NCBI GenBank assembly: GCA_050084515.1
Contig: CM114271.1
Location: forward strand, 38,750,001 to 38,814,000
Length of the DNA stretch: 64,000 nt
Direction: 5' to 3'
Source: Blasia pusilla
Taxonomy: Eukaryota
The notes beneath the pieces were generated by a model. The model did no database searches. It was not told the DNA's origin and was given only the letters and a program-made list of their open reading frames with translations. Each line of letters starts with the position of its first letter. Position 1 is the first letter of the stretch. Below are positions 6,430 to 40,772 of the stretch, piece by piece. Both the position numbers and the translations under genes were made by a program.

Positions 6430-7348
<919 letters not shown>

Positions 7349-7664
7349 TGTCGTGCGCATACACATTGCTACACAACATACATCGTTGTCACCAAACACA
7401 CACACAAACACGCACAATCCCCTGCTAACTCATGGCATCCAAACAACGAGACAAGAAGTACCAAAATATCTTCAATCGCCCCTCTAGCTGGTGGTTAGGT
7501 CCCTCTAACTCCAGATAGCCATCTATCCCTACCTACCATCACATACATCTCTTGGACGCTAAGAGCAAGAAGGTCGGGTGCTCATGTGGCCCCATCCTTA
7601 GTCGCCTTCTTGTCATCCATATCACAGACACAAGTCGGAATGTATAACTACCTACTCTATGTAC

Positions 7665-9288
7665 ATCTGAGACACATCCATCATCCCTAAGGAACCCTAG
7701 TGAGAGGTGGTGTCAAACATGCCATATGCCATCCTCTCAAACACCCATCACATACTAGCATAGTGGCTGCACCATGGGCGGAACCACACAATATACACCG
7801 CAAGCTTGCAAAAACTATTGCTAAGCTTGGATCAACTCTATCGTCAATGCTTGGAAGATGACATGGCGCACAGTTACGCACATGGTCCTTCCAAACCATA
7901 CCATCGCGTCCCTCCAATAAGAGAACACTGGATGGCAAAAACTCACTCGCTCTCAAGATGGTGTGCCTTGCAGTCACATCCAACGTCGTAGGTGCCGTTT
8001 GCTACAAGTAAACATAATCTCCCAAATTAAACCTCTGGATAGTAGGTCGATAACCACCTCCCCGAATAGTCGCATACCTCAACGTATCCTGATGTTGCGC
8101 AATTGCCAAGTTCTCAAACGCCATGGGCATTACTATCCGAAATAACTCATCCCTCTGAGAAGATGCTCGCATCCATACATCAAGGTCATCAAGGTTCAAC
8201 ACCCCACCAGTATCTCGACGTATGGCCACAGGTAAATCTCGCTCTCGGCCATAAAGCAACAAGTACGGTGAGAAAGACGCTAAGGATGCCTGCCTGCTGA
8301 ATTTGTATCCCATCGCCAACCACGGAAACTGAAGGTCCCAATCTCCTAGGTGACCTCTCTGCAAGCCATACTTGCGTACTGCTCTCTTCATCGTGTGCAC
8401 AACCCGCTTTGCTAGTCCATCCACCTTAGGATGATCTCGCGTAGTAGTGCGGTGGTTGATCAGTGCTTGATCACACAAGGCCTGAAACTCCCCGTGGAAC
8501 TCTGTACCCTGGTCTACCAATACCTCAGTTGGTGCGCCGTAATGACTCAGGACTTTGTCAAGGAAGGCATAGGCTACTCCCTCACTCGCTTTGTCAGGCA
8601 ATGCAATCAACTCTATCCACTTCGAGAAGTGCTTGAAAAATCACCAACACATAACGACTATGGCGCTCCGTCAAAGGCAAAGGTCCGGCAAAATCCAAAC
8701 TCCATCTATAACCTAAACCCATGATCGGAAGTGGATGCAAGTATGGACTTAGAGCATTGAACAATGCTCGGACTTGATCATAACCCATGCCCGAGTCAGC
8801 GAGATACGACTGGAGCTCGTTGGCATGGTGAGAGTGATGAGGAGTTGGTGTCAGGATGGCATGGGTCAACCTATTTGGGCTTGTTGGCTATGGAGAGCCT
8901 GATTATTGAGACTTCGATGGCGAGGTCTGATGGAGAGTCCTTAGATCCAGAGGCCGGTGAGGAGATGACAGGTGGCCGAGATATTCACAACGATGGAGTG
9001 GTCTTGGAGTTCCTGCGTACTGGCAGCGTCGTCACACAGTGGGTGCTAGAGAGCGGGATCGGATCCTACAGCAAGCCAGACGATTCCCGTGGGAGGGCAC
9101 ACATGTGTTGCGAGTGTGAGAGGATGGTAGAGTGCGTGTAGTGCCTCATCCTTCGCAGAGAGCACGTTTGGTGCATCATGCCCACGAGGAGTTGGGTCAT
9201 TTTGGAGTGAAGCGGACGTACAGTTTGCTCCAGATTCAATATTGGTGGCGAGGCATACAGACTGACGTTCAACAATTTTTTGCCAGAT
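7665..9288 (-). pseudogene. Integrase plus C-terminal PHD finger of copy A (N-terminal part inverted)
   Basis: WSLDFAGPLP, VLVDQGTEF, HPKVDGLAKR, FSPYLLLYG; PHD CILC..MLVCDGC..WHMAC..WMCLRC. ~8781-9288 lies on the + strand. Confidence 0.9.
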
Positions 9289-9289
9289 G

Positions 9290-10565
9290 AAGTCATACTC
9301 CAGCAACAAAAGAGCCCACCTTGCAAGCTTCCATGTAAGCTTGTTGGACTCCATCAACCACTTAAGTGGTGTATGATCAATAATGATGGTAAAAGGATTG
9401 CCAAATAGATAACGTCTGAAACGTACGACAGCCCATACTATAGCCAAGCAGTCACCCTCATACGAGCTTTACTTCACCTCTACAGCGTTGTTCGAGCGAC
9501 CAGCATAAGGCACCATGAACTCTCTACCATCATTGTCATGCTGGGTGAGCATGGCTCCAAGCCCCAACATGGTCCAATCGGTATGCAATTGGAAAGGACG
9601 CCCCCTGATCGGTCTCCTCCATATGGTGCGGATGTCAATCTGTCCTTGAGCATCTGAAATGCTCTCTGTTGTTCATCCTCCCAATGCCACTCCTAATCCA
9701 CCTTGGTCATCAATTTTAGTGGATTCGCAATTGAACTGAAACCCTTGACGTACCGTCGATAGAAGTTCGCCAATCCCATGAATGCACGAACTCGACTCAC
9801 ATCTGTAGGGCGTGGAATGCGTGAAATAGCCTCTACCTTCGTCTATTGCACACTAAGGCCCCATAGATATATCATATAATCCAAGTACTCAATCTGGTCA
9901 TAGAAGAACTTGCACTTGCCTGGATGTAGCTTCAGCCTATGTACATGCAATCGTTGAAACACCTCCTCTAGATGTCACTCATGCTCCTCAACCGTGGCGT
10001 CAAAGACTACGATATCATCAATATAACATCTAGCAAAATCCACACCTACCAAGATCCTATCCATGACCCTCTGAAACTCAACCGAGGCGTTCTTTAACCC
10101 AAATGGTAAGAACCGCCACTGGTACAAACAATCCTTCCCGTGAGGATCGATGCCCCAAAATTCCGTCTTCTGCATGTCCTCCAATCTAATAGGCAACTGA
10201 TGGTATCTGGCTCGCAAATCCATTGAACTGAAGATCTTTGCATGCCCAATCGCATCAAAGATCTTCTCAGGGGTGGGCATAGCATACCTATCGGACTTTG
10301 TCTGCCGATTGATAGGTCGGTAATCTCCACACATCCTCCTATCCGTCTAGTTGCTATGCACATCCTTCTTGGCTGGCATGATAGTGGGACATGCATATTC
10401 TCCATGCAACATCTCCACTAGTCTTGCTCTAACCAAGTCCTGGCTCCTACTGTGAATCAAACCCCTCTCCATGTCACTATACCTGTAGGTTCGTCGGAAG
10501 ATTGACGTGTCACTCGAAAACTCAATGCGGATCCATGGACCATTTAGCGTACCCAAATTATACAT
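9290..10565 (-). pseudogene. Reverse transcriptase and RNase H of copy A
   Basis: RMCGDYRPIN, MDLRARYHQL, LPFGLKNA, YIDDIVVF; RNase H FQLHTDW..., LARWALLLLEYDF. Confidence 0.95.
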
Positions 10566-10989
10566 ACTAAATGCAAAATAACTCCTTTAACTCCTAAGGA
10601 ACTGGTGTATCCGACGCCGCTCTCCTGCTGTCAACTTATGCCCATATCTGGCTTCCAAGTCTCCATTGTGACTACGGTAGGACTCTCCGGCGTGGATGTT
10701 GGTGGTTGCTATGGTGCAACCCCGTTTCGCACAATAGAACTCTCATCTCCACGTGAAGTACCCGGAACCACGCTCCATGATGTGGCTATCATCTCCCGGC
10801 ATACCTGCAAAACATCCCAAGAAGTCCAAGGGTGTCCCTCCTGATCACCCCTGGTATGTCGATGTCCTCGGGTCTCGCCCCTAGCCACTGCCTCAACCGT
10901 CTCGGTAGGCATGGGGCTCACCAACGCAACTTTTTTGATCTATCACATCCTCAAACGACGTTGCTTACCTACTCCTAAGCTGAAAATCC

Positions 10990-11935
10990 ATGTCAAGCAA
11001 TTCAGGTCCATCGCTTGATCCAAGACATGACGTACTGATGCCTCCGTTAGTGATGGCACTGCCGTCACTCATGTGGGGAATCCCATCGCTCACTCTCACT
11101 CATCGGCGTTGGGCTCCACCAACCTCTATTCTTGGTACTCCCAAACCAAGTTAGGTCTGGCCTCCTTGAATGCATAAGAAGCGGGAAAACTCACCAATGT
11201 GGGAAAAGCTGCCCGTGGCCTGCCAACCTTGTTGACCACAGTCAACGGCGGTCGATCATCTAGCCTCATTGCCTGTGATTGACGGCCCAGATCCAATATA
11301 GAATCCACCAATAAATCGGAGGGACGCTCCACTCTCACATAAGCCCTCCGCAACACATCATGTGGCACCAAGTTGGTCCACATCTTTCTCCAACATACAC
11401 CCTCGAATCGCCCAAAGGTTCTAGAGCACATCGATGTGCACCAAGTTGGCGTGCATCTTTGGTAGACCAACTTGGTGCCTCATTCTCCAACATACACCCT
11501 CAAATCGCCCAAAATTGGCGATTCGAGGTGTATGTTGGAGAATGAGGCTGATGCTCTTGTAAATGTCGCAAGATCCGCATTATCTCCCAAAACAACCTGG
11601 ATCGAGTGTCAACTAATCCGCTACCTTGTCCAGCACTCGATTTTCCCTGACACGGCCAACCAGAAATGACCAAGTCTATGGTCCTTACCCGCTCCAAGTC
11701 ATGCGCCCCCAACAATAAAATGTCCCTCAGTAGGGAACTCTAGTAACCTTGAATGGCGGACGCAGACAACAAGTCGGGAAAACAGAGGCGTAACAATGCC
11801 ACATGGTGAAGTGAAGCGTGCCTTGCAACATCATCAATCTCTAGATATAGGTACTGTTGTACGCGCATTCCAGCATGCAAAACAGCAGCTAACCCAGTGC
11901 TCATCCCTCCAAAGAGATCCAACATCCGAATACCC
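10990..11935 (-). pseudogene. C5-cytosine DNA methyltransferase domain (DNMT3-like) in copy A pol
   Basis: Motif I MLDLFGGMSTG; motif II YLEID; motif IV DLVISGWPCQ; SRLFWEIMRIL; WTNL; motif IX ERAMGFP; motif X RHVLDQAMDLN. Motif VI is disrupted by a hairpin rearrangement. Confidence 0.9.
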
Positions 11936-12489
11936 TCCTTTGGGATGCACCACACAATCGGGGTGGTGTCCAAAGGGGTCATAGCATCACTCTTGCCTAC
12001 CTGGGGTTGCTCCAACCTGTCACATTCTAGTGCAAATGTCTTACTCCACACGGTCTTCATATGCTCAGTGGCTAAGCATCGAAGCTCCTTAGTCGAGCCC
12101 CAAAGCGGCACATGTCCTTCACGGACTGATGCGACTACCATGACATTCCTCTCCATAGAAATGTCAAGAACGGGAGTATCCTTTGCATGGAAATGTCCCT
12201 CTATCAAATCACTAGGCCAAGTGATGGCATTGCTCAATGCTGCTAAGATCACGATCTCTCCTGGCCGTTGCTCGATCACTGCACCTGTGAATCGAACGAG
12301 TAATGAGCTAAGGCGCCCATCACCTGACTGCCATCCTGGTCTGTAGGACGCTGACTCTTCCCAGTAATTCAGGGAAAACCCCATTCGCGTATGACATTGC
12401 TCCACCAACCAAGACATTATAGGACTCTGCATTAGTCACTATCGCCTTGGCTCACACCACGGACTCATCTGTAGGATGTCCGAGCGAAT

Positions 12490-12720
12490 CCTCACCACAA
12501 CCTCCTATCGGGTGATATACTGTGTGGTACTCGCTCTACCCAAGATGTTTGTATCTGGAATGGATAATGCTCGACATCAACTCTTGTCAAGCCTAATCCT
12601 TTGAATGACGCTTTCCCCAACATCAAGGGTTGCGCTCCTGAATCCAACAAGACGCAATGCGGACTAAAAGCTCTACCTCCAAGACTCACCAACTAGAAGA
12701 CCTCTCCTAAGTTATCCAGC
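12490..12720 (-). pseudogene. Retropepsin-type aspartic protease of copy A
   Basis: HCVLLDSGAQPLMLG active-site motif. Confidence 0.85.
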
Positions 12721-13262
12721 AACACAACACCAGGAGAAGCCATGGCACGCTCTATCGCAGGTCTAGTGGGCATCTCCGCCATCCTAGTAGTCGCAGCCTG
12801 CCATGAATCTGACGTGGACGGCCCGAGCATCCGCTCCAAGGGCAGGTCCATCACCTCCTCTACAATCACCTCTAAACGTGATGAAGGAACTCCAACTCCA
12901 CGCTCACATAATGTAGCTCAGCGGGCGTACCTCCCAACGTCATAACATCGGAAGTAGAGAATAAAGGAGCGTGGTAGAAAATGGTGGCCGCCCCCAAAAA
13001 CGTGCTCGACACATACCCCTCCTGAGCATCAGCAATAGGAGTCGTCGCACTCGCTTCTCCCATTACCCTCCGTGCCTACACACCAACAACATCACCAACC
13101 CTCCAGGAACTCTGATCAGAACCCATCGATGGGGTCCTCATCGCCTCGGAGAACGTGAAAGACTGAGGAAGCCTAGTCTGTTTCCTTGCTTCCCCTCGCT
13201 GTGGATCCAACTTTGCGGCTGCTCCATGTCGTACGCCTACTCTCCTTGAACATTAATCTTGT

Positions 13263-14269
13263 TGTTGCGGAAGGGTGCGTTCAGTAGGTCACGCTCTCAA
13301 CGCTGATCTACATCCAAACACACATTATGTTTAGTCGAATCTTGGATCAATCAGCGGGCTAACTTTCTGAGTTCTTGTCTCAGTCTCTCATCAAGCTCAA
13401 CCTCCCTTGTTTCTCGGTATACAACACGGGCAAGTCTCGAAAGACTCGGGACAGACTTTCTGGTCGGTTCAGGAACCTCAAACGGCATTTTGCACCTGGG
13501 GGTTCCAACTGTCCAATGGACATCCAATGAGTCTCTAACCGACACACGCACAAAGTGAATCTTGGGTCAGAATCCAAGCGTGGCGTACAAAGCCCACTCC
13601 CTTGGATCAGGTTTGGGTTTCGAGTTCCAACGCCAGACTCCCATTCCATCCCTAGCCTCTAAGACGCCGTTTGGTGCTCAAAGTGGGGATTTGTGTTCCA
13701 AGACATCTTGGAGAGACTCCTCCCTTACTTGTACTTCTAGGAATCTCCGCGGTTCCCTACATTTAGGGAAAGACACCCGGGCCTCTCCAATTGGCCCTCA
13801 ACCCGATTGCTCTCCCAATCCTTTTCGGCCAATATCTCCGTTTATACTTATGCGTTTTCTAAGATCTTTGGTGCGTTGGAAGCGTCTCAAGATAAGATTT
13901 CCAACACATCCTTATTTGTTGCAAATTCATCTTGGAGCTAAACCTTATGGTCCAAAACACAGTAAAATTCCCCAAGCGCTAGTAATGTTCCAAAACTGGT
14001 TCTCACCTCTTTGGCAACCAACCTTGCAATACTCGACTCATCTCAAGTCTTGGCTCGCATTTGGTCAAGGTTTCTTGGTTGCAACCACTAACGCATAAAA
14101 CCCACAACTCTATTCCGCCTTTTGTCTCTTGGACTTTTCCAAGAGACCTTTCCAAACGCCTCTCCAAAGCGCGAACATCGCAATGTGAGTCCACTTGAGT
14201 TCTGATGTTCCGCTTGGCACCTATTTGGTGTTGTTTGCTTATGAGGGTCACGATACTCCACCCGTCACA
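13263..14269 (-). repeat. LTR-like segment Y (~1 kb, TGTGAC...CAACA) inside copy A
   Basis: TG...CA ends; absent at this position in copy B; homologous to ~18800-19414. No TSD seen. Confidence 0.55.
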
Positions 14270-14639
14270 ACTGCAGTAGCCTCCATCTAGGCAACCACGC
14301 ATATCCAACCAGGATCCTCCATATCTCTGGCTGCTCCATATAATGTCGATGCCACGGATGCGGCATCGGGTAATCTCAATGCCATAGTGGCAATGTGCTC
14401 ATGTAGCTGATGTATCTGAGCAGCCATCCTAGCCTCACGCCTTGGCGTCTCCCTCGACGCGTCGATGTGGTGGGACTCTACCTCCTCCACATGCAGCTCC
14501 ACCACCATTTCGGGAAACTCTAGCTCCTCGTCCCCCAACGAGACCACTTGGTGCACGATCTCTAGGCCTACCCGGACCCGCTACTTGCTCTGGTGCCCTC
14601 TCTGGCCCTCGGTCCGAACATAACTTAGCATGTAAACTG

Positions 14640-15886
14640 AAACACCTGGCGCGTGTATGACCATAACTCTAACAAAAGTCACACTGATAACCTCTTGGTA
14701 CAGCACCATCTCCTCCTGCATGCTAAGGCACACGTCCATGATCCTGACGAGTGCAATCACACTGATGATGGGCTCCACCACATGACCAACAAGTAATTGT
14801 AGGCAGCTGCTACTGAGCGGTATATGAAGGCGCAGGTCTCTGTGGCACGGCCTCCCGATATCCTCCTTGAGCTCGTGGTGCCACAGTCGACCTATCTCAG
14901 AGTCCATGTTGCTGCACATGTGGTGTAGAAAATCGTGACTACTCTCGCCCAGAACCCATGGTGGCTACACTCTCCTCCGCCATGTTGCGCTCAATGTTCT
15001 TGACGTTCCTAAAAACATCTCTCAACGTAGGGAAGGTCTTCATAAGAAGCACCCCCTCCCGCACACATGTCCGTAGGGTCTGGTCGAGCATGGCGTACCA
15101 TGACTGGATAGCCTGAGCCTCTGTCACCCCCTGAGTGACGTTGATCAACCCGCGCAAGCGAGTGTAAGCCTCACGTAAACTCTTACCCGAGCGCCTGTGG
15201 AAGTCATGGATGCTCCGCAACTTCTCCGTCCGTACCTCCTGGTAGCTCACCCTCAACTCAACGTAGAACTCAACCACGGGATTGAACCTGGGATGAACCC
15301 GACTAGATGGTGCAATTGCTCCAGTGCGAGTGACCCCTCCTAAAACATCACTAGTGGAAGAGGAAGTAGCCTTTCTTGACTCCTCCTCCTCATCTGGGAA
15401 TGGCTCCGTCCATGACACATAGTGTGGTTCATAGTAGAGTCGCCATGCTTCAATCTCCTGGGCATATCTGTGGGAAAACTCATGGTAATTGTCCATGGGC
15501 GCCCCTTCTAAATGCTGGAAAATACCATTCCATGCTATGAACGGGTTGAACTCTCTAGAGTTCCTAGCTCGTTTTGAGTCACACCAACTCCTAAACTCCG
15601 CAATGAAGTCGTGTAGCTCTAAAGTGCCTACAGCACACGAAAACCTACGCGGTCCTCTACCCCGGTCGTCCATCTCGTACGCCCAACTAGTAGGACCACT
15701 CAATGTGTACGGTGGATCACTAACACACTCCTCTATACGCTCCTCCTTGTCTGAAAACGACAAAGAAGGAGATCGAGGTGGTCTTTCACGTGGAGACCCC
15801 CAAAACCTTGCACCACTCTGGCTAAACCCTCTAGAGCTACTCTCAGGTCCACTACCTTGCCTCTCAAAATCCTGAAAGGACGCCAT
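14640..15886 (-). pseudogene. Gag of copy A with two zinc knuckles
   Basis: 315-aa ORF 14939-15886 with a retrotransposon-gag-like core (RSGKSLREAYTRLRGL). Downstream CWSCGGAHHQCDC and CDFC*SYGHTRARC at ~14640-14795. Confidence 0.8.
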
Positions 15887-18799
15887 GATAGCCCTTGTGC
15901 CCCTCTCACATGATCACTCTCAATCTTGCAAGCAATCTCTCAATCACTCAAACTAAACATGCGACACTCAATCTACACTCTCTCAATGAGACGTGTGCTA
16001 TGTGGCAACAAGCAACGTGGTGCGGCAAATCAACTAATCTATCGTCTCATCGACAAACCATCCTCAGCTTTGGATATACCACATAGGTGTATGTCCCATA
16101 AACCCATACATCCTCGATGCTCCTAGCATCAGCACAAAACCCAATATCCCAAATAACTTCCCAATACCCGAAAATCCCTCACACGTGCAGGGTAAGAGAC
16201 CAGAATGGGTAACCTGACAATAATGTCGATGTTGCTCCTCGGCAACTACAAATCTGGACCCCAACTTGGTCGTGGAGACAACTCCTCCAATCAGCAAGTC
16301 GTACTCGTCTTGTATTGACGCTGCTCAAACCTCCTCGATGTGCGGTACATGTCCAACGGTACGGTACGATACCGGCGGCACGGAATGGCTACCAACGGCA
16401 CGACACTCAAGAATGAGGTGCAGCATTCGGCGGCATACCCTCCTCAATCAGCACTCGGCGGCATACCCTCCTCACACGCTCTGCTCCTAAGTGAAGGAGC
16501 GGCTCCGCGATCGAGACGGTGCGGTGCGGCCACGAGCGGCATGGCGTGACAATCGCCGGCGCCTTACGGCTACGGGCGTCACGGCACAGTACTCAATCGT
16601 CATCGAGCGGCTACCAATCACAACATAGAAACATGAAATAAAAACTCAAACACCATAACCCGAGGTCACCTACCATTACTGGTTGATGACGAAATTGCGA
16701 TCACAGTGGCGGCCAAACCAAGGTACATGATGGCGGCGCAAATCAGACAATCAACTTTGGTTGTGGAAGACCCTCCACTCCATAATGGCGGCAATGGCAA
16801 CCAAAGGGTGGACAACGGTCGAATGCGGCTCTAAGAAACGCTAGGCGGCAGCGGCGGTCGACGGTGGACGGTGGACCGCTGATGGTGACGGCCGACCATT
16901 GATGGTGATGGTTGACCGTCAATGGCAGACTATTGATGGTAACTATGACGGCGACAGCCGCCAATGGCATGGCAACTGGTTTAGGGTTTGAACAATTTAA
17001 CTCTAAAAATTGCCTAGCAATGGCAATTTTGCAAGATTGACCATAACATTTTGCTCACAACTCCAAATTTAGCACCATTTGTTGCCCAACATGCATATCT
17101 TCATGATCTACGACGGCAGAAAAAAATATTTTGAATAAAACATTTGAGTAAAAACTAACAGGGAGTTTTGTTAAGCCCAATGTCTCTTTCTCTTATACAA
17201 AATTTGGCAGCGCTTTCGCGCTGATTTCTCCCAACAAAAATGTAAAACCTGTGAAAATACAAATCAGAAAGCTACATGGTGATCCCAAGAGCACCGGCAT
17301 GGGGCAACTTGCCCCCATACTCAATCCCTATAAAAAATTGGGCAGCGCTTTTGCGCGCCACTCTTCCACACAAAAAATCGGCAAAGGAAACATCACAAGT
17401 AAGCAGCTCTTGCTCCGGTGAGCACTTCCATGAACCGCTGAATGGGGAATAGGATCCCCAACGTGCAAAACCAAGGAGTGACCAGCAAGCTCCCCCATGA
17501 AGCTCTGTCACTCACTCATTCTCTCTTTGTAAAATAAGATCCAATCTCTCTCAAAACACCATAGTTCTCACCTGTGTGCACTCTCACATATCTCTCTCAA
17601 TGTCAAACCAAATCCACTCTCCTAATAAGAGGCTTGGGTTACACACACAAAGCAAGCAAGACCATAGCTTCGCCGTCTCATGCCAAGAGGTTCAACAAAA
17701 AGAGAATGAGCTCTCAAGCTCTCTCTCCTTGAGGTATATCTGTCCCCTCTCCCAAGCTCTCTCCATGATAACCTATGCTCCCAAGTCACCTCCTTGGCTC
17801 TTGACCTCATGTAGGAAGTTAAGAGCCACTTACCAAAAATATAAATTCGATTATGTACTCAAAATGGTACTTATCTAAAATAGTAAGTTCCTCAATATGG
17901 CTCCAAATGAGCCGAAACGAAGGGAAAACCTGCTCTCTCAGGTTTCTCAAGGCCTCAGCAGGTCATCCTCGACCTATTGAGCATGTCCTCCACTCCTCAC
18001 AAAGGCGCTCTACTAGATCTTACCAATCTATCCTAAAAGATATGACACACTTGATGACGATCGAGTATCGTGTAGTGACGCTCGTATCCACAATGCGTCG
18101 TGCCTGCTCATGGCCGCACCGCACCGTCTCAATCACGAGCCGCATCCTCACTTTGGAGCATGGCATATGTTTCTGATTGCGGAGGATATGCCACTAAGTG
18201 CTTCATCCCACCATCGAGTGTTGTGTCGCTTGTAGCCATTCCGTGCTCCGAGTGTCGTACCGTACTGCTGGACTCGCTCCGCACATCGAGGAGATTTGAG
18301 CATCGTCAATACGAGAGGAGTATGACTTACAGATTTGAGGAGTTTGTCTTCACAATCGAGTTGGGGTTGAGCTTTATAGTTGGTGAGGAGTGACATTGAC
18401 ATTATTAAGGTTACCCATTCTGATCTTTTGCCCTACAGTGTGATGGAATTCCGAGTATTTTGCAGTTATTTGGGATATTGGGTTTGGTGTGGATGTAGAG
18501 CGCATCATGGATGTATGGGTTTAGGGGACATAGACCTGTATGGGATATTCACACTTGAGGGTATGTTCTATTGATGAGACAATAGATCTGTCAATTTTCC
18601 ACAGCACGCCGCTTGTTGCTGCACAGTACACGTCTCAGTGAAAGGGAGTGTAGGCTGAATGCCGCATGTTTGGTTCGGTGATTGAGGGATTATTCATGAG
18701 ATTGAGACTGATCGCATGGGAGGGGCACGAGGATCATCATGGCATCCTTTTGGTACTTTGAGAGGCAAGGTGGTGGACGTGAAAGTAGCTTTAGAGGTT

Positions 18800-19445
18800 T
18801 AGGCTCCAACGCATGAGAGATCTTAGAAAATGCACAAGGATCAGTTGAGATATTGGCCAAAAATTACTATGAGAGCAGTTGGATTGAGGGCCAATTTCAG
18901 GGGCCCGATTGTCTTTCCCTAAAGTAAGGGTGAAGACATGGATCCCCAAAAGAACTAGTAAGGGGGAGTGTCTCCAACGATTCTTGGAACACGAACCTCA
19001 CTTTGAGTGCCAAACAACATCTTAAGGGCACGGGATGGAACAAGACTTTGGCGTTGGAACTCGAAACCCAAACCTGATCCAAGGGAATGGATTTCGGAAG
19101 CCACACTCCAACCAGAGATTCATTTTCGTGACTCACAGCTAGATACTCATTGGATATCTATTGGACAGTTTGAACCACGAGGCATGCAAGCCCCATTTGA
19201 GGTTCCTCAACCGACTTGAAATTTTGTCCCAAGTCTTCAAAGACTTGGCTATGTTGTAAATTGTGAAACTAGGAAGATTGAGCTTGATGAGAGGCCGAAT
19301 CGAGAACTCGGATAGTTTGAATGATGATAGACCTAGATCCGAATAATGTGAGTGCATGTTTGGGTGCAGATCAAGATTGAGAGTGTGTCCTACTGGACGT
19401 ACGCTTCCGCAACATTAATGATTTACGTTCAAGGAGAGTAGGCAC
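18800..19445 (+). repeat. Partial segment Y replacing part of gag in copy B
   Basis: Reverse-complement match to ~13235-13885; ends acgcttccgcaaca...gttcaaggagagtaggc. Confidence 0.75.
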
Positions 19446-22094
19446 ATGACAATCGGGGTAGAGGACCGCGTAGGTTTCTAGGTGCTTTAGGTACCATAGA
19501 GTTACAAGACTTCATCGCAGAGTTTAGAAGTTGGTGTGATTCACAATGGGCTAGGAACTCAAGATAGTTCAACCCGTTTATAGCATGGACCAGCATTTTG
19601 ACAAGGCACCCATGGACGAATACCATGAGTTTTCTCAGAGATATGCCCATGAGATTGAGGCATGGAGACTCTACTATGACCCACACTATGTGTCCATGAC
19701 TAAGCCATTTCCACACGAGGAGGCGGAGTTAGGAGAGGCTACTTCCTCTTCCATCATTGATGAGTTAGGAGGGGTGAGTCCGACTAGGGCAGTTGCATCG
19801 TCCAGTCGGGTTCGTCATAGGTTCAACCTCGTAGTTGAGTTCTTTGGGGAGTTGCGGATGAGCTATTGGGGGTATGGACCGAGAATTTATAGAGCATCCA
19901 CGACTTCCATAGGCTCTTGGGTGAGAGTTTGCTTGAGGCCTGCACTTGCTTGCGTCATTTGATTAGTGTCACTTAAGGGGTGACAAAGTCCCAAGCTATC
20001 CAAGCATAGTACGCGATGCTCGACCGAGACATGCGAAAACTGGTGAGGGATGGGGTACTTCTAATGCGCACCTCACCTACGTTGAAAGATATTTTTGAGA
20101 CTGCGGAGAATATTGAGCGCAATATGGCTAAGGAGAGCGTAGTAGCCATGGGTTCTGTGCGAGGGCAGTCACAATTCGCTCCATCGTTAGTGGAGAAATG
20201 TGGATTTTGGGAGAGGATTGTGGCACCACGAGCTCAAAGAGGATATCGAGAGCCCGTGGCATAGCGACTTGCACCATCATATGCGGCTTAGCAGCAATCG
20301 CCAAGGATTATTTATTGGGCATGTAGTGGAGCCCATGACCAACGCGATTGCACCCGTTACGATAGTGGAGGCGTGCCTCAGCATGGAGGAGATGGGTTTG
20401 CACCAGAAGTTTATGAGTGTTACCATCATCAAAGGTACGGTCATATACGAGCCAGGTGTTTCAGTCTACTCCTGAGTTACGCCCGCAGCGAGGGCGAGAG
20501 AGGGCATCAAAGAAAGTTTTTGGTCTGGGTGGACCTAGAGGTCGTGTACTAGGTGGTCATGTTGGGGGATGAGGAGTTGGTTTTGCCTGAGTGGAGTTTC
20601 CCGTAGAGGAGGTTGAAGTCCACCACGTAGACACTTTGAGGGAGACGTCGGACGTGAGGCTGGGATATCTCCTCACATACATCAATTACAACTGCAAATT
20701 GTTGCTATGGCATTGAGGTTATCCAATGTCAGATCAGTGGCGTCGACGTCTTATAGGGAAGCTAGGGACATGAAGGATCTTGGTTGGATGTGCGCGGTTG
20801 CACAAACGGAGACAGACGCTAGAGTTACTTGTGGAGCAACTGCAGATCTAGAGTTGGATACGTAGAGAGGGGAGTCCAGGAAACAGAATGACTTCTTCAG
20901 TCTTTTAGATTCTCCGAGGCGATGAGGACCCCATCGATCGGTCTTGATCAGATTTCATGGAGGATTGATGTTGTGGGTGTACAGGCACGGAGGGTGCGAT
21001 GGAAGAAGTGAGTGCGACGACTCCTATTGCAGGTGCTCAAGTGGAGCTTGTGTCAAGCACGTTGTTGGGGGCGGCCACTACGATATACTGCGCACCATTG
21101 TTTTCTACTTTCAATGTTACGACGTTGGGAGGTATACTGATCGAGGTTTCAGGCTGGCCGCTACGCTATGTGAACATGGAGTTGGTGTTCCTCCGTCACG
21201 ATCAGAGGTGATTGGAGAGGAGGTGGTGGACCTGGCCTTGGAGCCTATGCTCGGGCCGTCCAAATTATATTCATGGCAAGCTACGGTTGCTAGGATGGCA
21301 GAGATGCACGCTAGACCCGCGATCGAGCATGCCATGGTATCGCGAGATGTTGTGTTGTTGGATAACTAGGGAGAGGTCTTCCAGTTGGTGAGTCCATGAG
21401 GCACATTGTTTTTTCCGATGCACGTCTTGTTGGATTTAGGAGGGCAATCCTTGATGTTGGGGAAGGGGGCATTTACAAGATTGGGCCTGACGAGGGCTGA
21501 CATGGAGTATTGCCCATTCATAATACATATATCCTTGGGTTGAGCGAGTATGATGCAATTTATCACCCGACATGAGGTTGTGGTGAGGATTAGCCCGGGA
21601 CATACATCAGATGAGTCCATGGTGCGATCCAAGTCGATAGTGACCAATGCTGAGTCCTATGACGTCGTGGTTGGAGGAGTATGCATCCTACAGACCAAGA
21701 TGGTAGTCTGGTCATGGTCGACTTAGCTCATTACCCGTTCGATTCACGAGTGGAGTGATCGAGAGATGGCCAATAGAGATGGCAATATTAATTGTATTCA
21801 GCAGTGCCATCACGTGGCCTACTGATGTGATTAAGGGGCATGACCATGCAAAGGACACACCCGCACCTAACACTTCTAGGGAGAGGAGTGTTATGCTAGT
21901 CGCATCATTCCATGGAGGAGAGGTGCCGTTGTGGGGCTCGATTAAGGAGCTTCCACGCTTGCCCAATAAGCACGTGCAGACGGCGTGGAGTGAGACGTTT
22001 GCACCAGAGAGCGATGGGTCAGAGGAACCCAAGGTAGCCGAGAGTGCTACGATGACATCCTTGGATACCACACCGATTGTGTGGCACATTCCAG

Positions 22095-23055
22095 AGGAGG
22101 ATATTCGGGTGTCGGATCTCTTTGGAGGGATCGGCACTACGTTAGCTGCTATTTTGGAGGCACGAGTATGTGCGCAAAAATATTTGTATATTGAGCTTGA
22201 TGAGGTTGCAAGGCACGTTTCACTACAACATGTGGCATAGTTACGCCTCCATTTCCCGACTTGTTGTGTGCGTCCGCCGTATAGGGATACCATAGTTCCC
22301 TAACGAGGGATATTTCATTACTGGGAGCGCAAGACTTGGAGCGGGTAGGGACCATTGATTTGGTTATTGTTGGTTGGCGATGTCAGGACCAATCGAGTCC
22401 TGGATGAGATAGTGGATTAGTTGACACTTGCTCCATGTTATTTTGGGAGATGATGAGGATCTTGCAACACTTGTAGGAGCATCAAATCAATCTTGTTCTA
22501 TTGCTTACATCTTGAAGAATGTAACAATTTTGGGCGATTCGACGTCACGGCTGGTGACGAGTGCACATCTAATGCCCACATGGATCAGCCCAGAAGTGTT
22601 GTTGGATGCGGTGATTGTATGTTCACAAGCTCATCGTCCACGTCTTTGGTGAACCAACTTGGTGCCCCATGAGGTCTTGCATATGCCCTATGCAAGACCT
22701 CATGGGAGCGCCCCTCCCATTTTTGGGTGGATTCTATTCTCAACCCAAGTCATCGATCAGAGGTAGTGAGGCACAATGATCAAACGTCATTCTCTATGGT
22801 CAACAAAATTTGCATGCCACGGGCAGCCTTTCCCACATTTGTGTGTTTTTCCGCTTCATGTGCATATAAGGAAGATGAACTTGGCTTGGTTTGGGATGAC
22901 TAGGTATAGCGGTTGGTGGAGCCCCACGTCATTGAGCGAGAGTGAATGATGGGATTTCCCACAAGAGTGACAGGATTACCCTCACTATTAGAGGCATGAT
23001 AATAACATGTCTTGGGTTAAGCGATAGACTTGAACTGATTGACATGGATGGTCAT
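22095..23055 (+). pseudogene. C5-cytosine DNA methyltransferase domain (DNMT3-like) in copy B pol
   Basis: VSDLFGGIGT (I), YIELD (II), DLVIVGWRCQ (IV), LFWEMMRIL, YILKNV (VI), LLDA..SQAHRPRLW*TNL (VIII), MGFP (IX), HVLG*AIDLN (X). Confidence 0.9.
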
Positions 23056-24485
23056 CTTAGGAGTAGTTGAGCAACAGGTCATAACAGTTGCGTTGGTGAG
23101 CCCCACGCCTACCAAAATGGTTGAGGTAGTGGTTGGGGGCTAGATCTGAGGAGATCGACACTCCAGGGGTGATCGGGAGAGATACCCTTGGACTTCCTGG
23201 GATATTTTGCAAGTACGTCAAGAGATGGTAGCCACAACATCGAGCGTGGTTTCGGATATTGCACATGGAGAAGATGAGATTTTGCAATTGGTTGCACGTT
23301 AGCAATCAAGCTATGTTATTCACAATGGGATTGTACCATAATAACTATCGATACCAGCCTTGGAGAGTCCTACCCTAGTCACAATGAAGACGTGGGAGTC
23401 AGATATGGGCCCTTAGTTGACAGGAGGAGAGCGGCGCCAGATAGATTAGTTCTTTTTGGAGTTATAGGAGTTATTTTGCATTTAGCATACATGATTTGGG
23501 TACGTTGAAGGGTCCAAGGATCCGCATTGGGTTGTCTAGCGACACACCAATCTTTGGACAACCTTACAAGTACAATGATATGAAGAGGGCTCTAATTCAA
23601 TGTAGGAGCCAAGACTTGGTTGGAGTAGGACGAGTGCAGATGTCGTATGGAGAGTATGCATCTGCCACTGTAATGCCCGCCAAGAAGGATGTGCATGGCA
23701 ACTGGAGGGATAGGCGGATGTGTGGAGATTACCAACCTATCAATCGGTGGACGAAGTCCAATAGGTATGCCATGCCCATTCCTAAGGAGACCTTTGATGT
23801 TATTGGGCATGCAAAGGTCTTCTATTTGTTGGATCTTCAAGCCAGATACCATAAGTTGCCTATCCTCTAATCTGATAGGCAGCTGATGGTATCCGACTTT
23901 CAGATTGGAGGATAGGCAAAAGATTACATTTTGGGGCATCAATCCTCACGGGAAGGATGGCTTGTACGAGTGGCGTTTCTTACCATTTGGGTTAAAGAAC
24001 GCTCCGGCTGAGTTTTGAGAGAGTCATAGATAAGATCTTGGCAGGTCTTGATTTTGCTAGGTGTCATATTGATGACATCGTAGCCTTTAGCGCCATGGTT
24101 GACGAGCATGAGCGACATTTGGAGGAGGTGTTTCAACGATTGCAATTACATGGGCTAACCCTACATCCAAGCAAGTGCAAGTTCTTCTATAACCAGATTA
24201 AGTACTTGGGTCATAGAATATACCTAGGTAGCCTTGGTGTGTAGCAGACGAAGGTAGAGGCTATTTCACGCATTACATACCCAAAAAATATGAGTTGAGT
24301 ACTTGCATTCATGGGATTGGCAAAATTTGATCGACGGTACATCAAGGATATCAATTTGATTGCAAAGTCGTTAACCTCGCTCATCAAGGTGGATCAAGAG
24401 TGGCACTTGGGGATGAATGGGAGAGAGCATTTCAACTGCTCAAGGTCAGGTTGATGTCTGCGCCCATATTGAGGAGACCAATCAG

Positions 24486-24726
24486 CAAGGTTGCATGTGG
24501 ACAAAGTCCATGTCCGTGGACTTATGTCTGTTCCATACTCCCCCATTTCTTCCTCCCTCCACCTCCACTCCCTCCTTCCTCATTGCTCTTATCATCCTTG
24601 CCTTGCCTTCCATCATGGACTAAAAGTGTGGGTCCTACCTCTTGGAACTCATGTCCGTGTACATGTCCAGACTTGTCCGTCCATGTCTATCCTAAGGAAG
24701 GACTTGTCCGTTTTTGTGCAACCATG
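24486..24726. mobile_element. hAT-type MITE (241 bp) inserted in copy B
   Basis: TIRs CAAGGTTGCA / TGCAACCATG; 8-bp TSD CCAATCAG (24478-24485) / CCAATGAG (24727-24734). It interrupts the RRPI|RGRPF frame. Confidence 0.85.
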
Positions 24727-24977
24727 CCAATGAGGGGGCGTCCTTTCCAATTGCATACAGATTGGAGCATGTTGGCGCTTGGAGTGGTGCTCATCCAACA
24801 TGACGATGAGGGTAGAGAGTTTGTGGTGGCTTACGCTAGCAGCTTGAACAATGTTGTAGAGACAAATTATAGCTCGTATGAGGAGGAGTGTTTGGTTGCA
24901 GTGTGGGCTATCATGCATTTCAGGTGTTACTTATTTGGCAACCCCTTTACCATCATTACTGTTCATTAGCCACTTAA

Positions 24978-25318
24978 TGTAACTCTCCAACTCCCGAAAC
25001 CACTCTAGAGTTGGTCAAAGCAAGAATAGCCTTCAAGGCCTCTCCTCTTCCTTTATATACTCAGAGATAGGTACAATGAAGACAAAGTAGCTCTTCCTAT
25101 CCTTATGCCACGTGTCTTAATCTCATAGCATGAGAGGATCTCTTTTCCCCTCTAATATTCCGACCTCATCCTTATCTTCCTTTTCACCAACTTTTGGCCC
25201 CACTCTCATCTTTATCTCATGTATCTTGCCTTTTTTCTCTTTTTGGTTGATTTTTTCCCACGTATGCGTCGCATGTCATAGATTATAACTTAACTATTAC
25301 TAACAAAGGATGGTTACA
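24978..25318. mobile_element. Solo LTR (341 bp) inserted in RNase H of copy B
   Basis: TGTAAC...GTTACA ends, perfect 5-bp TSD CTTAA, internal TATA-like tttatata. Confidence 0.9.
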
Positions 25319-27392
25319 CTTAAGTGGTTGATGGAGTCCCGAAAACTTATAGGGAAGCTTGCGAGGTGGGTTCTATTGTTGGAGGAGTATGATTTCCAAG
25401 TGGTGCATAGACCTAGGAGGCTCAACCAAGATGTAGATGGTTTGAGTTGTAACCCATGCCTGAGTGAGCAAGATGCAATTGGAGCTCAGTGGTATGGAGA
25501 GAGTGATGAGAAGTTGGTGCCAAGATGGCACGCGTCAGCCTATTTGGGCTTGTTGGCTATGGATAGCCATAGTGTTGAGACTTCGATGGCGAGGTGTGTG
25601 GGAGAGTCCTTAGATCCAGAGGTCGGTGAGGAGGCAACAGGTGGCTGAGATATTCATGAGAATATAGCAGTCTTTGTGTACCTATGTATTGGAAATATCG
25701 TGAGCACATTAATTGCTAGCTAGAGAGCGAGATTGGATCCTATAGCAAGCCAAACGATTCCGATGGGAGGAGACACATATATTGCAAGTTTGGGAGGATG
25801 GTAGAGTATGTGTAATGCCTTATCTTTCACATAGAGCATGTTTGGTGAAGCATGCTTACAAGGAGTTGGGTCATTTTGGAGTGGAGTGGATGTACAACTT
25901 GCTCTAGATACAATATTGGTGGCGAGGCATGCAGATTGACGTTTAGGAATTTGTTGCTATGTGCATGATGTGTGATCGGGTCCAAGCATCCTTCAATGCT
26001 CTTACTCTACAACTGCATCCATTTCTGATCATGGATTTAGGTTCTAGATGGATTTTGGACTTTTCAAGACGTTTACCTTTGACGGAGCGCCATAGTCGTT
26101 ATGTGTTGGTGATGGTCGAACACTTCTCGAAGTGGATAGAGTTGGTTATATTTCTTGAAAAAGTGAGTGAGGGAGTAGCATATGCCTTTCTAGAGCAAAT
26201 GTTGAGTCATTACGGTGCAACAGCTGAGGTGTTGATAGACCAGGGTATGGAGTTTTACGTGGAGTTTCAGTCCTTGAATGATCATACACTTATCAACCAC
26301 TACACCACTTCGCGGGATCATCCTAAGACGGATGGATTAGTGGAGAGGATTGTGCCAACAATGAAGAGAGGTTTGCGCAAGTATGGTTTCCTAGGAGAAT
26401 GGGACCTCCAATTTTTGTGGTTCGCGATGGGATACAAATTCGGCAGGCAAGCCTCCTTAACGTCTTTCTCACCATCCTTGTTGCTTTATGGCCAAGAGCC
26501 AGACTTACTTGCGGCCATTTGTCAAGATGTTATGAGATGTTGAATCTTGATGACCCTGATGTATGGATGGGAGTATGTTCTTAGAGGGCTGGGTTATTTC
26601 GGAAAGTAATGTCCATGACGTTTGAGAACCTGGCGATTGCGGAACATCGAGATACTTTGAGGTATGCGACTATTCGGGGAGGTGATTATCGACCTACTAT
26701 CCGGAGGTTTCATCAAGGAGGCTATGTCTACTCGCAACAGACGGCACCCACAATTTTGGATGTGAGTGCAAGGCACACCATCTGGAGAGTGCGTAAGATT
26801 TTACCATATGGTGTTCTTTTATTGGAGGGACGTGATGGTATGGTTTGGAAGGACCATTTGCATAATTTTGCGTCATGTCATCTTCTCAACATTGACAGTA
26901 CATTTGATCCGAGCTAAGCAGTAGTTCTTGCATGCTTACAATGTATGTTGTGTGGTTCCGCCCGTGGTGCAGCCACTACGTTAGTCTATGATGGATGTTT
27001 GAGAGGATGGCATATGGCATGCTTGACGCCATCTCTCACTAGGGTTTCTCAGGAACAATATATGTGCCCTAGATGTACATAGAGTAGATAGGCATATATT
27101 CCGACTTGTGTCTGTGATATGGATGACAAGAAGGCGACTACAAATGGGACCACATGAGCACCCAACCTTTTTGCTCTTAGTGTCCTAGAGATGTATATCA
27201 TGGTAGGTAGGGATAGATGGCTATCTAGCGTTAGAGGGATCCAACCACCAACTAGGTGGGCGATTGGAGATATCTTGGCACTTCTCGTCTTGTTGTGTGG
27301 ATTCCATGAGTTGAAATGGGATCGTGTTTGTTTGTATGTGCATTTGGTGATAACGATGTACGTTGTGTAGCGATGTGTATGTGCATGACAAC

Positions 27393-28017
27393 TATCACGT
27401 CTGTTAGGATAGATCAACAAGATCTAGTAGAGATCCTTCAAAGATAGTAGAGGACAATCCCTAAAGGTCAAGCATGACTTGTTGAGGCCATGGGAAACCT
27501 GAGAGAGCAAGTTTCTCCTTCATTTCGGCTCATTTGGAGCTATATTGAGAAACTTATTATTTCGGGCAAGTTACGATTTTGTATGGTTGACTTTCCACTT
27601 TGGGAAGTGGCCCTTGACCTGGTATAGTAGGTCAAGAGCCAAGGAGTTGATCTGGGAGCATAGGTTATCGTGGAGAGAGGTTGGGAGAGAAAAGGGGGTA
27701 TACCTCTAAGAGAGAGAAAGCATGAGCTCTCTTTGTTGAACCTTTTAGCATGAGGCGGCGGAACTATGGTCATCCTTGCCTTGTATGTGTAATCCAAGCC
27801 TCTCATTAAGAGAATGGGTTTGGTTTTACATATGAGAGAGAGAGTGCACACATTGTGAGACCTTGTTGTGAGTGAATTCCACTTGATCTAATTGAAGATA
27901 TTTTGGTATTTCTCATCTCGTTGTGTGGATTTCATGAATTAACATGGGATCCTGTGTGTTTGTATCCGCATTCGATGACAACGATGTATGTTATGAAATG
28001 ATATATATGCGTACAAA
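27393..28017 (+). mobile_element. Short derivative of the same family: 5' terminal ~480 bp joined to 3' terminal ~125 bp
   Basis: 27393-27865 matches the 5' end of A (18047 to 17570); 27890-28017 repeats 27262-27390. Starts 2 bp after the 3' end of B. Confidence 0.75.
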
Positions 28018-28479
28018 TTTTTTTAATAAAAATGGTTTTAAAAATTATCTTACTTGCATGAATTAAAAGTCCGATGCTTTCTTCTCCGCATGAAAGACAA
28101 GTTGTCTTTTAACTAGTCCAATATTATATTGGAGTCAACTGTTCTCCAAACCAGGCAACATCCAAGCCCATGGGCCGATGATATAAAATACGCCATTCCT
28201 ACATGCAGTCTTGCTGAAAAACAACGTTTCTTTTAACTGTCCTTGAACTAATTCCTTATAATTTTTAGCCTAGATGAAAATAGAATAAAAAAATCTACTC
28301 CTATTTTGTTTGGCCTTGTACTAGAGGAAGTCGGCCATGATTCCCATTTCTCTCCCATACTGGCGGGGCCGTATGGGCTCATTAAAAGAACAGGCAGTGA
28401 GGCACGATGATCGACTACCGTTGACTGTGGTCAACATGGTAGGCAGGCCGCGGGCAGCCTTGCCCACGCTATGCATCAC

Positions 28480-32800: not shown

Positions 32801-33690
32801 ATCCAATGAACTGAAGACCTTTGCGTGACCAATCGCATCAAAGATCTCCTCACGGGTGGGCATGGCATACCTATCGGACTTCGTCTGCCGATTGATAGGT
32901 CTGCAATCCCCACACATCCGCCTATCCGTCCAGTTGCCATGCACATCCTTCTTGGCGGGCATGACAGTGGCACATGCATACTCCCCATGCGACATCTCCA
33001 CTAGTCCTGCTCCGACCAAGTCCTGGCTCCTATTGTGAATCAGAGCCCTCTCCATATCACTGATCCTGTAGGGTCGTCGAAAGATCGGCATATCACTCGA
33101 CAACTCAATGCGTATCCCCGGTCCCTTCAGCGTACCCAAATCCTCCATGCTAAACGCAAAGCAGCTCCTATAACTCCTGAGGAACTTATGTATCCGGCGC
33201 CGCTCTCATCGTGTCAACTTAAGTCCCATATCTGGCTCCCAAGTCTCCATCGTGACTACGATAGGACTCTCCGGCTCCAGTAACGGTGGTTGCTATGGTG
33301 CAACCCGGTCTCGAATAACAACACTCGTCCGCTCTCTTGCAACCAACTGCAAACTCTGATCTCCTCTATATGCGGTGCCCTGAACCACGCTCGATGTTGT
33401 GGCTATCACCTCCTAGCCTACGTGCAAAACATCCCAAGAAGTCCAAGGGCGTCTCTCCCGATCTCCCCTGGTGTGTAGATCTCCTCGGGTCTCGTCCCTA
33501 GCCACTGCCTCCGCCGTCTCGGTAGGCATGGGGCTCACCAATGCAACCGCTGTGATGTGTCGCGATCTCATACGACGCTACTCAGCCACTCCCAAGCTGA
33601 GGATCCATGTCAAGAAGTTCATGTCCATCGCCTGACCTAAGACATGGCGTCGTGATGCCTCGACACTCTTGTGGGAAATCCCATCGCTGC
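29886..33690 (-). mobile_element. Retroelement copy C, 5'-truncated (DNMT tail-RT-RH-IN-PHD)
   Basis: Same 3' terminus GCACGACA at 29886; RT 32654-33148, RNase H 31846-32235, integrase ~30500-31450; DNMT motif IX/X remnant (MGFP..VLGQAMDMNFL) ~33600-33690. Confidence 0.92.
30201..30340 (-). pseudogene. Intact C4HC3 PHD finger at the integrase C-terminus of copy C
   Basis: CMLCGSARGAATMLFCDGCSRGWHMACLTPPLTRVPRGQWMCPRC followed by stop. Confidence 0.92.
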
Positions 33691-40409: not shown

Positions 40410-40560
40410 GGAGGGTGGGACAGCGGGGGACGGAGAGCGTGGAGGTGGGAGACCGGAGGACGGAGAGTGTGGACGGTGGGACAGCGGGAGACGGAGAGCG
40501 TGGAGGTGGGACCGTGGGAGACCGGAGGACGGAGAGTCGGGAGGTGGGACGGCGGGGGAT
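40410..40560 (+). repeat. G-rich minisatellite (about 2.3 copies of a ~60-bp unit)
   Basis: Repeated gggacagcggg..gacggagagcgtggaggtggga..gaccggaggacggagagt. Confidence 0.8.
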
Positions 40561-40772
40561 GGACTCTGGAGGGGATGGAAATCGGAACGACGAGAGAACA
40601 TGGAGCCAGTCAGACAAGGGAGCTCAGGAGGCAGAAGCCGGGAGCCACGCGTCGTTGTGGTCAATCAAAGACTCGTACGGCCAAAATTCTACTCTTCTGT
40701 CGCCTCTTCAGCGAAGCAGCGGGACACATCCTCGGGGTTTCCTAACGGGCTCGATGGGGCGTGTCACTCGGG

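Follow-up and report, generated by a model that had tools for sequence, protein, structure and literature searches.

A DNMT3-like cytosine methyltransferase domain in the polyprotein of a Ty3/Gypsy-type retrotransposon family of Blasia pusilla

Retrotransposons with a cytosine methyltransferase of their own invert the usual picture of host versus transposon, and so far such elements have been studied only in dinoflagellates and in one charophyte alga. The text accessible from de Mendoza et al. (2018, PMC5890265) describes SymbioLINE-Dnmt, SymbioDIRS-Dnmt3 and KnitGypsy-Dnmt3, and reports a DIRS-like repeat structure combined with Gypsy domains for the elements of Klebsormidium. A 2026 preprint (10.64898/2026.05.21.726589), in the part available, mentions "streptophytes (Gypsy-DNMT3)" and describes separate DNMT4-like captures, and the accessible part of PMC9940879 describes a Chlamydomonas element, Gypsy-7a_cRei, with a PHD finger and without a methyltransferase. 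The sequence analyzed here, a stretch of 64,000 nucleotides from Blasia pusilla (assembly GCA_050084515.1, contig CM114271.1, positions 38,750,001 to 38,814,000; hereafter the window), contained three old, broken copies of one Ty3/Gypsy-type retrotransposon carrying such a domain.

Repeat finding revealed the copies as three related stretches with mutual identities of 76–91%; copy A and the truncated copy C lie on the minus strand, copy B on the plus strand. Searches by tblastn with natural relatives as queries revealed the same domain order in copies A and B: protease, methyltransferase, reverse transcriptase (RT), RNase H, integrase and PHD finger. Gag was present upstream of the protease, represented by a frame of 324 residues in copy A and by a match of the gag tail to a relative (P0001); the copy A frame matched gag-like proteins at 45–47% identity and nothing above 47%, and a CCHC knuckle was carried by one of these proteins. 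The element polyprotein consists of gag, protease, DNMT3-like C5 methyltransferase, RT, RNase H, DDE integrase and PHD finger. The Ty3/Gypsy order was accompanied by a Gypsy-type RNase H and an H2C2/DDE integrase, with Pfam matches to RVT_1, RT_RNaseH and rve in the window and to Integrase_H2C2 in the relatives.

Methyltransferase domain: position, motifs and type

In the original prediction, made from the sequence alone, both copy A and copy B had a complete C5 methyltransferase located between the protease and the RT, and its tail survived in copy C. The tblastn alignments and the motifs bore out this position, downstream of the protease and upstream of the RT, and the predicted limits lay within about 110 bases of those given by tblastn. 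The family assignment also held against Pfam: PF00145 matched a 79-residue frame with the motif IV piece of copy A (SGWPCQG; E 1.5e-10, 41.4 bits at a cut-off of 22). Six of seven relatives were matched at E ≤ 0.01, five of them above 22 bits; P0006 reached 19.4 bits and P0007 was unmatched.

Motif I (DLFGG) was found at 11905–11919 in copy A and at 22115–22129 in copy B, motif II as LEID in the former and IELD in the latter, and motif IV as GWPCQ (11647–11661) and GWRCQ (22372–22386), respectively. YILKNV (22506–22523) and AHRPRLW (22629–22649), at the positions of motifs VI and VIII, were present in copy B only. All three copies retained motif IX, MGFPT (A, 11072–11086; B, 22949–22963; C, 33670–33684), and motif X, VL[DG]xA[MI]D[LM]N (A, 11000–11026; C, 33617–33643, with the RT next to it). 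The copy A domain, interrupted by six in-frame stops and at least one frameshift, kept motifs I, II, IV, IX and X, having lost VI and VIII by a small local duplication with short inverted matches at 11367–11548 (or by a frameshift), and the copy B domain kept all motif positions with 13 stops and three frameshifts. The full catalytic set (motif IV Cys, motif VI Glu and motif VIII Arg-x-Arg) was present in neither. Because of the stops and frameshifts, the predicted completeness of the domain stood as a homology footprint and failed as a gene; neither copy would yield an enzyme.

For the classification a naturally open relative of 368 residues (P0004) was used as the query. Among PDB chains, phmmer ranked DNMT3A first (6e-12), followed by DNMT3B (1.4e-9), DNMT3C (6.1e-9), the DRM enzymes of tobacco (1.2e-8) and Arabidopsis (DRM2, 1.6e-4) and HaeIII (3.5e-4). 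The alignment to DNMT3A was collinear from motif I to VIII and then over IX–X (query 47–231 with chain 7–171, query 320–353 with chain 235–268), placing SRAHRPRLWWTNL opposite SAAHRARYFWGNL and DERERAMGF opposite TEMERVFGF. A profile of 17 sequences gave the same first rank with a larger margin (DNMT3A, 2.5e-24), with DRM at 6e-15 (tobacco) and 7e-12 (Arabidopsis), HhaI at 6e-9 and DNMT2 at 2e-8, and no DNMT1 or chromomethylase chain was matched by it at E 0.01. An AlphaFold model of the domain (pLDDT 87) was compared by Foldseek, and only DNMT3A, DNMT3B and DNMT3C appeared among the matches listed (E about 1e-19 to 5e-16, 20–23% identity), with target-normalized TM-scores of 0.79–0.85 against chains holding only the methyltransferase domain. 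The DRM match was limited to motifs I–V (query 11–142, chain 229–350) at the C-terminal end of DRM, which fits the permuted motif order of this enzyme. With sequence, profile and fold searches all ranking DNMT3 first, the window domain is best classified as DNMT3-like and unpermuted, as had been predicted, and distinct from DRM. PWWP and ADD domains were not matched by Pfam in the window pieces or in the relatives.

Inheritance, transcription and selection of the domain

The domain moved together with the element, in agreement with the original prediction: it occupies the same place in three copies, its genomic read depth follows that of the other domains, and the same order occurs in intact natural polyproteins. 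Two of the latter, P0240 (2811 residues) and P0221 (2568 residues), ran uninterrupted through protease, DNMT, RT, RNase H, integrase and PHD finger. As for the zinc knuckle, Pfam gave a weak CCHC match in P0221 (E 6.4e-5, no single stretch passing) and none in P0240.

About 1% of a genomic run was mapped on positions 6560–24000 at a likeness of at least 80%, and 207,995 of the 12,434,590 sampled reads (1.67%) belonged to the family. The summed depth was 1348–2050 over the DNMT domain, 1867–2211 over gag, 2164 over the protease, 2330–2742 over the RT and 3072–3131 over the integrase, with 36 in a flanking bin; the DNMT was thus near the gag and protease level and at 50–75% of the RT level. Reads at least 99% alike numbered 295, which is roughly 2.5-fold single-copy depth if they come from this locus, so that the family can be roughly estimated at the order of a thousand copy-equivalents. 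The subfamily of copy B was several-fold rarer, with a depth of 45–266 over its 5' half (18200–21691) and 296–712 in the DNMT and RT bins, compared to roughly 1040–3370 for copy A.

Three RNA runs contained 7,595 matched reads in 10.13 million, 8,286 in 11.97 million and 8,030 in 11.05 million. The first mates fell on the plus strand over the minus-strand copy A (for example, 90.9 versus 5.95) and on the minus strand over the plus-strand copy B, which on the usual library chemistry means sense transcripts. The bias followed the orientation of each copy, indicating strand-specific transcription of the family.

The ratios of nonsynonymous to synonymous substitutions (dN/dS), obtained from codon comparisons of copies A and B guided by natural proteins, were nearly identical along the element: 0.53 for the DNMT (bootstrap 0.38–0.72), 0.51 for integrase-PHD, and 0.52 both for RT-RNase H and for the gag tail with protease. 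The comparisons with copy C gave 0.30–0.45 for the RT. Neutral evolution of the domain, which the original prediction had named as a refuting outcome, was rejected. Individual residues were followed in 135 domain segments (clusters at ≤ 50% identity). No segment had lost the catalytic Cys, the Glu of motif VI, Arg223 (the first Arg of motif VIII) or Asn230, and Arg225 (the second Arg) was kept in 134.

These results bear on the possibility that one element once acquired part of a host DNMT3 gene, which has been copied passively ever since as a passenger and never used. Such a history would agree with the broken state of both window copies and with the accessible text of PMC5890265, where no activity is shown for the lineage, but it is at odds with a DNMT ratio equal to that of the RT and below one, with the (near-)invariant catalytic residues, and with the spread of the family. 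In an HMMER search over 1.84 billion representatives, 4,268 proteins passed E ≤ 0.001 and 269 of the clusters also passed E ≤ 1e-30; the named members of the family, from this and the other protein searches, span a liverwort, a moss, Klebsormidium, Closterium and chlorophytes. We therefore regard a passive passenger as extremely improbable; the methyltransferase is an inherited and selected part of the element.

Split repeats, nesting and the surroundings

The features of the three copies are given in Table 1. Direct terminal repeats (long terminal repeats, LTRs) were absent from both copy A and copy B. The repeats follow the layout A1 – internal part – B1 – A2 – B2, equivalent to a permuted LTR. 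In the reads of the family the 518-bp unit (17530–18047) was joined on both sides to the 128-bp unit (7349–7475), with 685 genomic reads over the A2/B2 junction and 373 over B1/A2, the second of which was also found in RNA. Copy A starts with A1 and finishes with B1, without A2-B2, its sense ends being TGTCAT... and ...CGACA, and its A1 is 76% identical to A2 of copy B in opposite orientation. Read joints and loose ends coincided with its limits at 7348/7349 and 18047. With copy A and one CACT removed, the flanks aligned without a break to the leader of copy A itself; this seamless empty site and the CACT target-site duplication (TSD) demonstrate an insertion of copy A into the leader of copy B. 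That the flanking repeats might bound each copy as terminal inverted repeats was considered and dismissed, since the read joints, the TSD and the empty site show nesting. Copy B retains only the last part of A1, now with an (AG)50 array. This perfect array (6433–6532) has apparently grown from a short GAGAGAG run in the A1 remnant.

Table 1. Features of the three element copies in the window (positions of the 64,000-nucleotide stretch)
Feature	Position	Strand	Evidence or remark
Copy A, whole insertion nested in copy B leader	7349..18047	-	4-bp TSD, empty-site alignment, read joints
TSD CACT	left copy 7345..7348, right copy 18048-18051		
Repeat A1 ("Y", 518 bp), 5' terminal repeat of copy A	17530..18047	-	read joints 7475>17530, 18047>7348/9
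Gag open frame of copy A, 324 residues	14939..15913	-	list of open reading frames
About 1 kb in copy A, skipped in many family members	13222..14255		joint 13221>14256, 313 DNA reads
Aspartic protease region of copy A	12492..12929	-	tblastn to P0001, P0206; LLDSGAQ at 12630-12650
DNMT3-like C5 methyltransferase domain of copy A, pseudogene (from sequence)	10958..12048	-	Pfam, tblastn
RT and RNase H of copy A	9166..10661	-	RVT_1 E 1.6e-14, RT_RNaseH E 3.1e-16, tblastn; YIDD 10014-10025
About 500-bp inversion private to copy A	8781..9289		direct-repeat families D7, D8; opposite-strand read joints
Integrase of copy A	8002..8779	-	Pfam rve E 5e-8, tblastn to P0228
PHD finger after copy A integrase, ended early by a stop	7687..7800	-	Pfam PHD E 2.7e-7, PDB matches
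Repeat B1 ("t", about 128 bp), 3' end of copy A	7349..7475	-	read joints; purine-rich tract 7476-7490 adjoins, sense-upstream
Copy B, main part	18048..28009	+	leader continues from 6554-7348, beyond copy A
Copy B, 5' part	6433..7348	+	A1 remnant 6433-6553, including (AG)50 array; leader 6554-7348
DNMT3-like domain of copy B, pseudogene (from sequence)	21974..23077	+	tblastn, motif positions
Split direct repeats, 3' end of copy B	B1 27263-27391, A2 27392-27890, B2 27891-28009	+	
Copy C, truncated at both ends	30193..33684	-	DNMT tail (IX, X), RT, RNase H, integrase, PHD
Stray 29-codon piece of the DNMT domain, same family, just past copy B end	28388..28474	+	

A relative of the DNMT domain was encoded in 206 of the 225 metagenome stretches matched. 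One of these, L027, from another organism, showed the full layout A1 – internal – B1 – A2 – B2 flanked by the TSD AAGG, and L031 and L004 showed parts of it. A short TSD was thus found twice (CACT in copy A, AAGG in L027), in both cases with TG...CA-type ends (TGTCA...GACA). A purine-rich tract before B1 (...AGAGGGACCTAACCAC.AGCTAG.GGGGC.A) was conserved between the window (7476–7490), L027 and L031, and the B1/A2 junction (...GACA/TGTCA...) resembles an LTR-LTR junction. On the strength of this tract and this junction, the integrated form may represent a canonical element with an LTR composed of B plus A, which was circularized and opened at the palindrome. The form of copy A could have come from a one-repeat circle or, equally well, from recombination between B1 and B2.

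The full layout was present in none of the window copies, copy A being without A2-B2 and copy B without most of A1, and the split repeats might accordingly be an artefact of rearrangement, nested insertion or tandem copies in a family with ordinary LTRs. We consider this very unlikely: both junction types were frequent in genomic reads, L027 carries the complete layout inside a 4-bp duplication in another organism, with parts repeated in L031 and L004, and the same repeat structure is described for the Klebsormidium elements in the accessible text of PMC5890265. A permuted arrangement that belongs to the family itself is preferred.

Two irregularities were seen in the internal part of copy A. 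Over 13222–14255 the genomic depth was halved and the RNA came from the opposite strand, so that this kilobase probably stems from the insertion of another repeat, either into copy A itself or into a subfamily. Across 8781–9289 most family reads joined on opposite strands, and the RNA strand bias reversed there.

Further elements were found around the copies. Helitron remains occupied the minus strand of positions 1–4400, with a PIF1-like helicase frame at 45–260 (E 1.4e-21) and a Helitron_like_N frame at 2292–2777, and a LINE-like element was located at 36400–39550 on the plus strand, with an RT frame of 368 residues at 37391–38497 (RVT_1 E 8e-14). A GC-rich stretch at 39990–40880 contained long overlapping frames on both strands, rich in Pro/Ser and Arg/Gly repeats. 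A frame at 28771–29043, near the stray DNMT piece, had a possible likeness to a hAT transposase and no Pfam match. Among the other long frames of the window Pfam matched only Helitron, PIF1 and LINE RT domains and no host gene, and Rfam had no match within the window.

Lineage, proposed role and known systems

Many of the relatives were polyproteins of 1,000–3,400 residues. In a set of 237, the DNMT preceded the RT in 48 (with knuckle or protease upstream), lay between RNase H and integrase in 117, stood alone in 68 and was not seen in 4. In an unrooted FastTree of the domain (196 rows, without named host or bacterial enzymes) the two orders parted on a single branch with a support of 99. Copies A and B paired (99) inside a clade of 11 rows (98) together with six proteins of Marchantia polymorpha, P0001, P0002 and P0004. 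The named members of the window group were from Marchantia, Sphagnum fallax (outside the tree), Klebsormidium nitens (KFL_013780020, with the order zinc knuckle – protease – methyltransferase) and two Closterium species, and P0081 of K. nitens fell on the window side of the split. The gene sets of Marchantia polymorpha and Sphagnum fallax already hold such relatives as "hypothetical proteins"; at the polyprotein level copy A shared about 50% identity with the Marchantia copies and 45% with the one from Sphagnum. The sister group, with the order RT – RNase H – DNMT – integrase – PHD, had four named members, all of them chlorophytes (Scenedesmus, Chromochloris and Haematococcus among them), and no description of it was found in the literature searched.

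The window family is not a new kind of element but falls within the Gypsy-DNMT3 lineage of streptophytes, which was first described from Klebsormidium nitens. The original prediction, which knew of no characterized land-plant family, is overstated to this extent; no description of a land-plant retrotransposon with a DNMT was found in the literature searched, most subscription journals being outside the reach of that search.

In each of the three copies, and in relatives with either domain order, the integrase is followed by a PHD finger. Its nearest solved counterparts were the fingers of KMT2D/C, PHF21A, KAT6A, DPF3, ATXR5, KDM5A/B, UHRF1, AIRE and CHD4. The fingers of PHF21A, ATXR5, KDM5A/B, AIRE, CHD4 and UHRF1 bind unmodified H3 tails. 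A three-way comparison of copies A, B and C over RT-RNase H (9290–10700, 23420–24990, 31950–33300) and integrase-PHD (7640–8780, 25960–27100, 30193–31340) gave C>T changes per site of 0.122 at CG, 0.124 at CHG and 0.048 at CHH, with T>C at 0.034. The C>T changes were about 2.5 times commoner at CG and CHG than at CHH, an excess that fits deamination of 5-methylcytosine in CG and CHG contexts. Compared to the reads, the window had A/T in place of G/C at 1150 positions and the reverse at 322.

Taken jointly, a selected DNMT3-like part of a Gypsy-DNMT3 element, methylation of element or insertion DNA, and integration steered by the PHD finger form the explanation that we consider probable. In active members the enzyme would be made within the polyprotein and carried with the particle and the pre-integration complex, where it may methylate the new DNA of the element or the DNA around the insertion, and the integrase-linked PHD finger may direct integration to chromatin with an unmodified H3 tail. 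The window copies no longer perform any of the proposed steps.

A number of observations weigh against this explanation. Judging from their reading frames, both window DNMT copies are pseudogenes and neither is expected to encode a working enzyme; copy B has Arg for Pro in motif IV (GWRCQ) and Lys for Glu in motif VI (KNV for ENV). The A-B ratios of about 0.5, well above the values of < 0.2 reported for Klebsormidium copies, contain neutral decay after insertion in addition to selection, and the protein-guided codon alignment may have biased them, to the same degree in all domains. The RNA reads show transcription of the family, not intact or translated copies, and most of them were less than 90% like copy A (5,394 of 7,595 in run X16) and therefore derive from other family members. 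The excess of C>T is evidence of past methylation and not of the action of a particular enzyme. No tRNA-type primer-binding site was recognized after A1 by eye, no formal search having been made. The yeast assay of the Klebsormidium enzyme was inconclusive, and no activity is shown for the lineage in the accessible text of PMC5890265. Finally, the Pro before the catalytic Cys was replaced by Glu in 71 of the 135 segments and kept in 54, which is unusual for C5 methyltransferases; this split did not agree with domain order.

The last two observations would also suit an enzyme that is kept but acts on RNA or RNA-DNA hybrids, or serves as a module recruiting or blocking the host methylation machinery, and so would the location of the domain between protease and RT, in the section of the polyprotein that forms the particle. 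We find this distinctly unlikely, given that DNMT3-type DNA enzymes lead both the sequence and the fold matches, with DNMT2 far lower (2e-8), that the motif VIII Arg-x-Arg and the IX–X region are kept, and that, according to the available text of PMC5890265, SymbioDIRS-Dnmt3 enzymes methylated CG in yeast. Methylation of DNA thus remains the preferred activity, and its target might be host DNA at or near the insertion, where the enzyme, in concert with the PHD finger, would create methylated and silent surroundings that tolerate insertions. The PHD finger stands after the integrase, where chromoviruses have a chromodomain, and the window itself is a nest of transposons, with A inside B and Helitron and LINE remains alongside, but nesting is common in many families. 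A target confined to the host in this way is rather unlikely; it overlaps with our preferred explanation, methylation of element or insertion DNA, and does not exclude it.

A broader scenario, offered tentatively as a possibility that we would not favor at present, combines the history of the domain with that of the repeats. A single capture of a DNMT3-like domain by a PHD-bearing Gypsy element before the chlorophyte/streptophyte split would have given rise to a green-lineage clade with two domain orders, persisting to bryophyte-grade plants (up to about 2% of a genome and still transcribed), and integrating from a circular cDNA opened at ...GACA/TGTCA... inside the LTR. Opening of the circle at this palindrome would explain both the DIRS-like repeats and copies with A1 and B1 only, such as copy A.

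The charophyte Gypsy-DNMT3 lineage extends to liverworts and mosses, can be abundant and transcribed, and has a large chlorophyte sister group, and Marchantia and similar plants offer tractable models for what a transposon gains by methylating DNA. The relation of the element enzymes to plant DNMT3 and DRM is thereby raised, and permuted repeats with true TSDs bear on how a DDE integrase works without ordinary LTR ends.

Among the known systems the closest is KnitGypsy-Dnmt3, which, according to the available text of PMC5890265, shares with the window family the Gypsy type, an unpermuted DNMT3-like domain in the polyprotein, split repeats and purifying selection; K. nitens KFL_013780020 falls in the same DNMT group, its identity with the copies of that paper not being established. 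The window family differs in being nearest to Marchantia (about 50%) and, as measured through P0004, about 37% identical to the K. nitens domain; the word "PHD" was not found in the accessible text of PMC5890265. The chlorophyte Gypsy group, including the "pol" of Scenedesmus sp. PABB004, has the same DNMT family (35–48% identity, all motifs), the integrase-PHD tail and Gypsy-type RT and RNase H, but the DNMT is placed after the RNase H and not before the RT. The catalytic domains of animal DNMT3A, 3B and 3C are the best matches, collinear from I to X and with a short target-recognition region, yet only 20–23% identical; the element domain is embedded in a retrotransposon polyprotein, has GQAMD in motif X where DNMT3A has GRSWS, and is without PWWP or ADD by Pfam, its PHD finger standing far downstream after the integrase. 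Plant DRM is DNMT3-related like the element domain, but is permuted. DIRS-like elements, including SymbioDIRS-Dnmt3, have split direct repeats and some carry DNMT3-like domains (PMC5890265, accessible part), whereas the window element has a DDE integrase (rve, Integrase_H2C2), a 4-bp TSD and TG...CA ends, and no phage-integrase (tyrosine recombinase) match was obtained with Pfam in the window or the relatives. Chromoviruses likewise have a chromatin reader fused to the C-terminus of a Gypsy integrase; no chromodomain was matched by Pfam in the window or in the relatives, and the reader of the element described here is a PHD finger.

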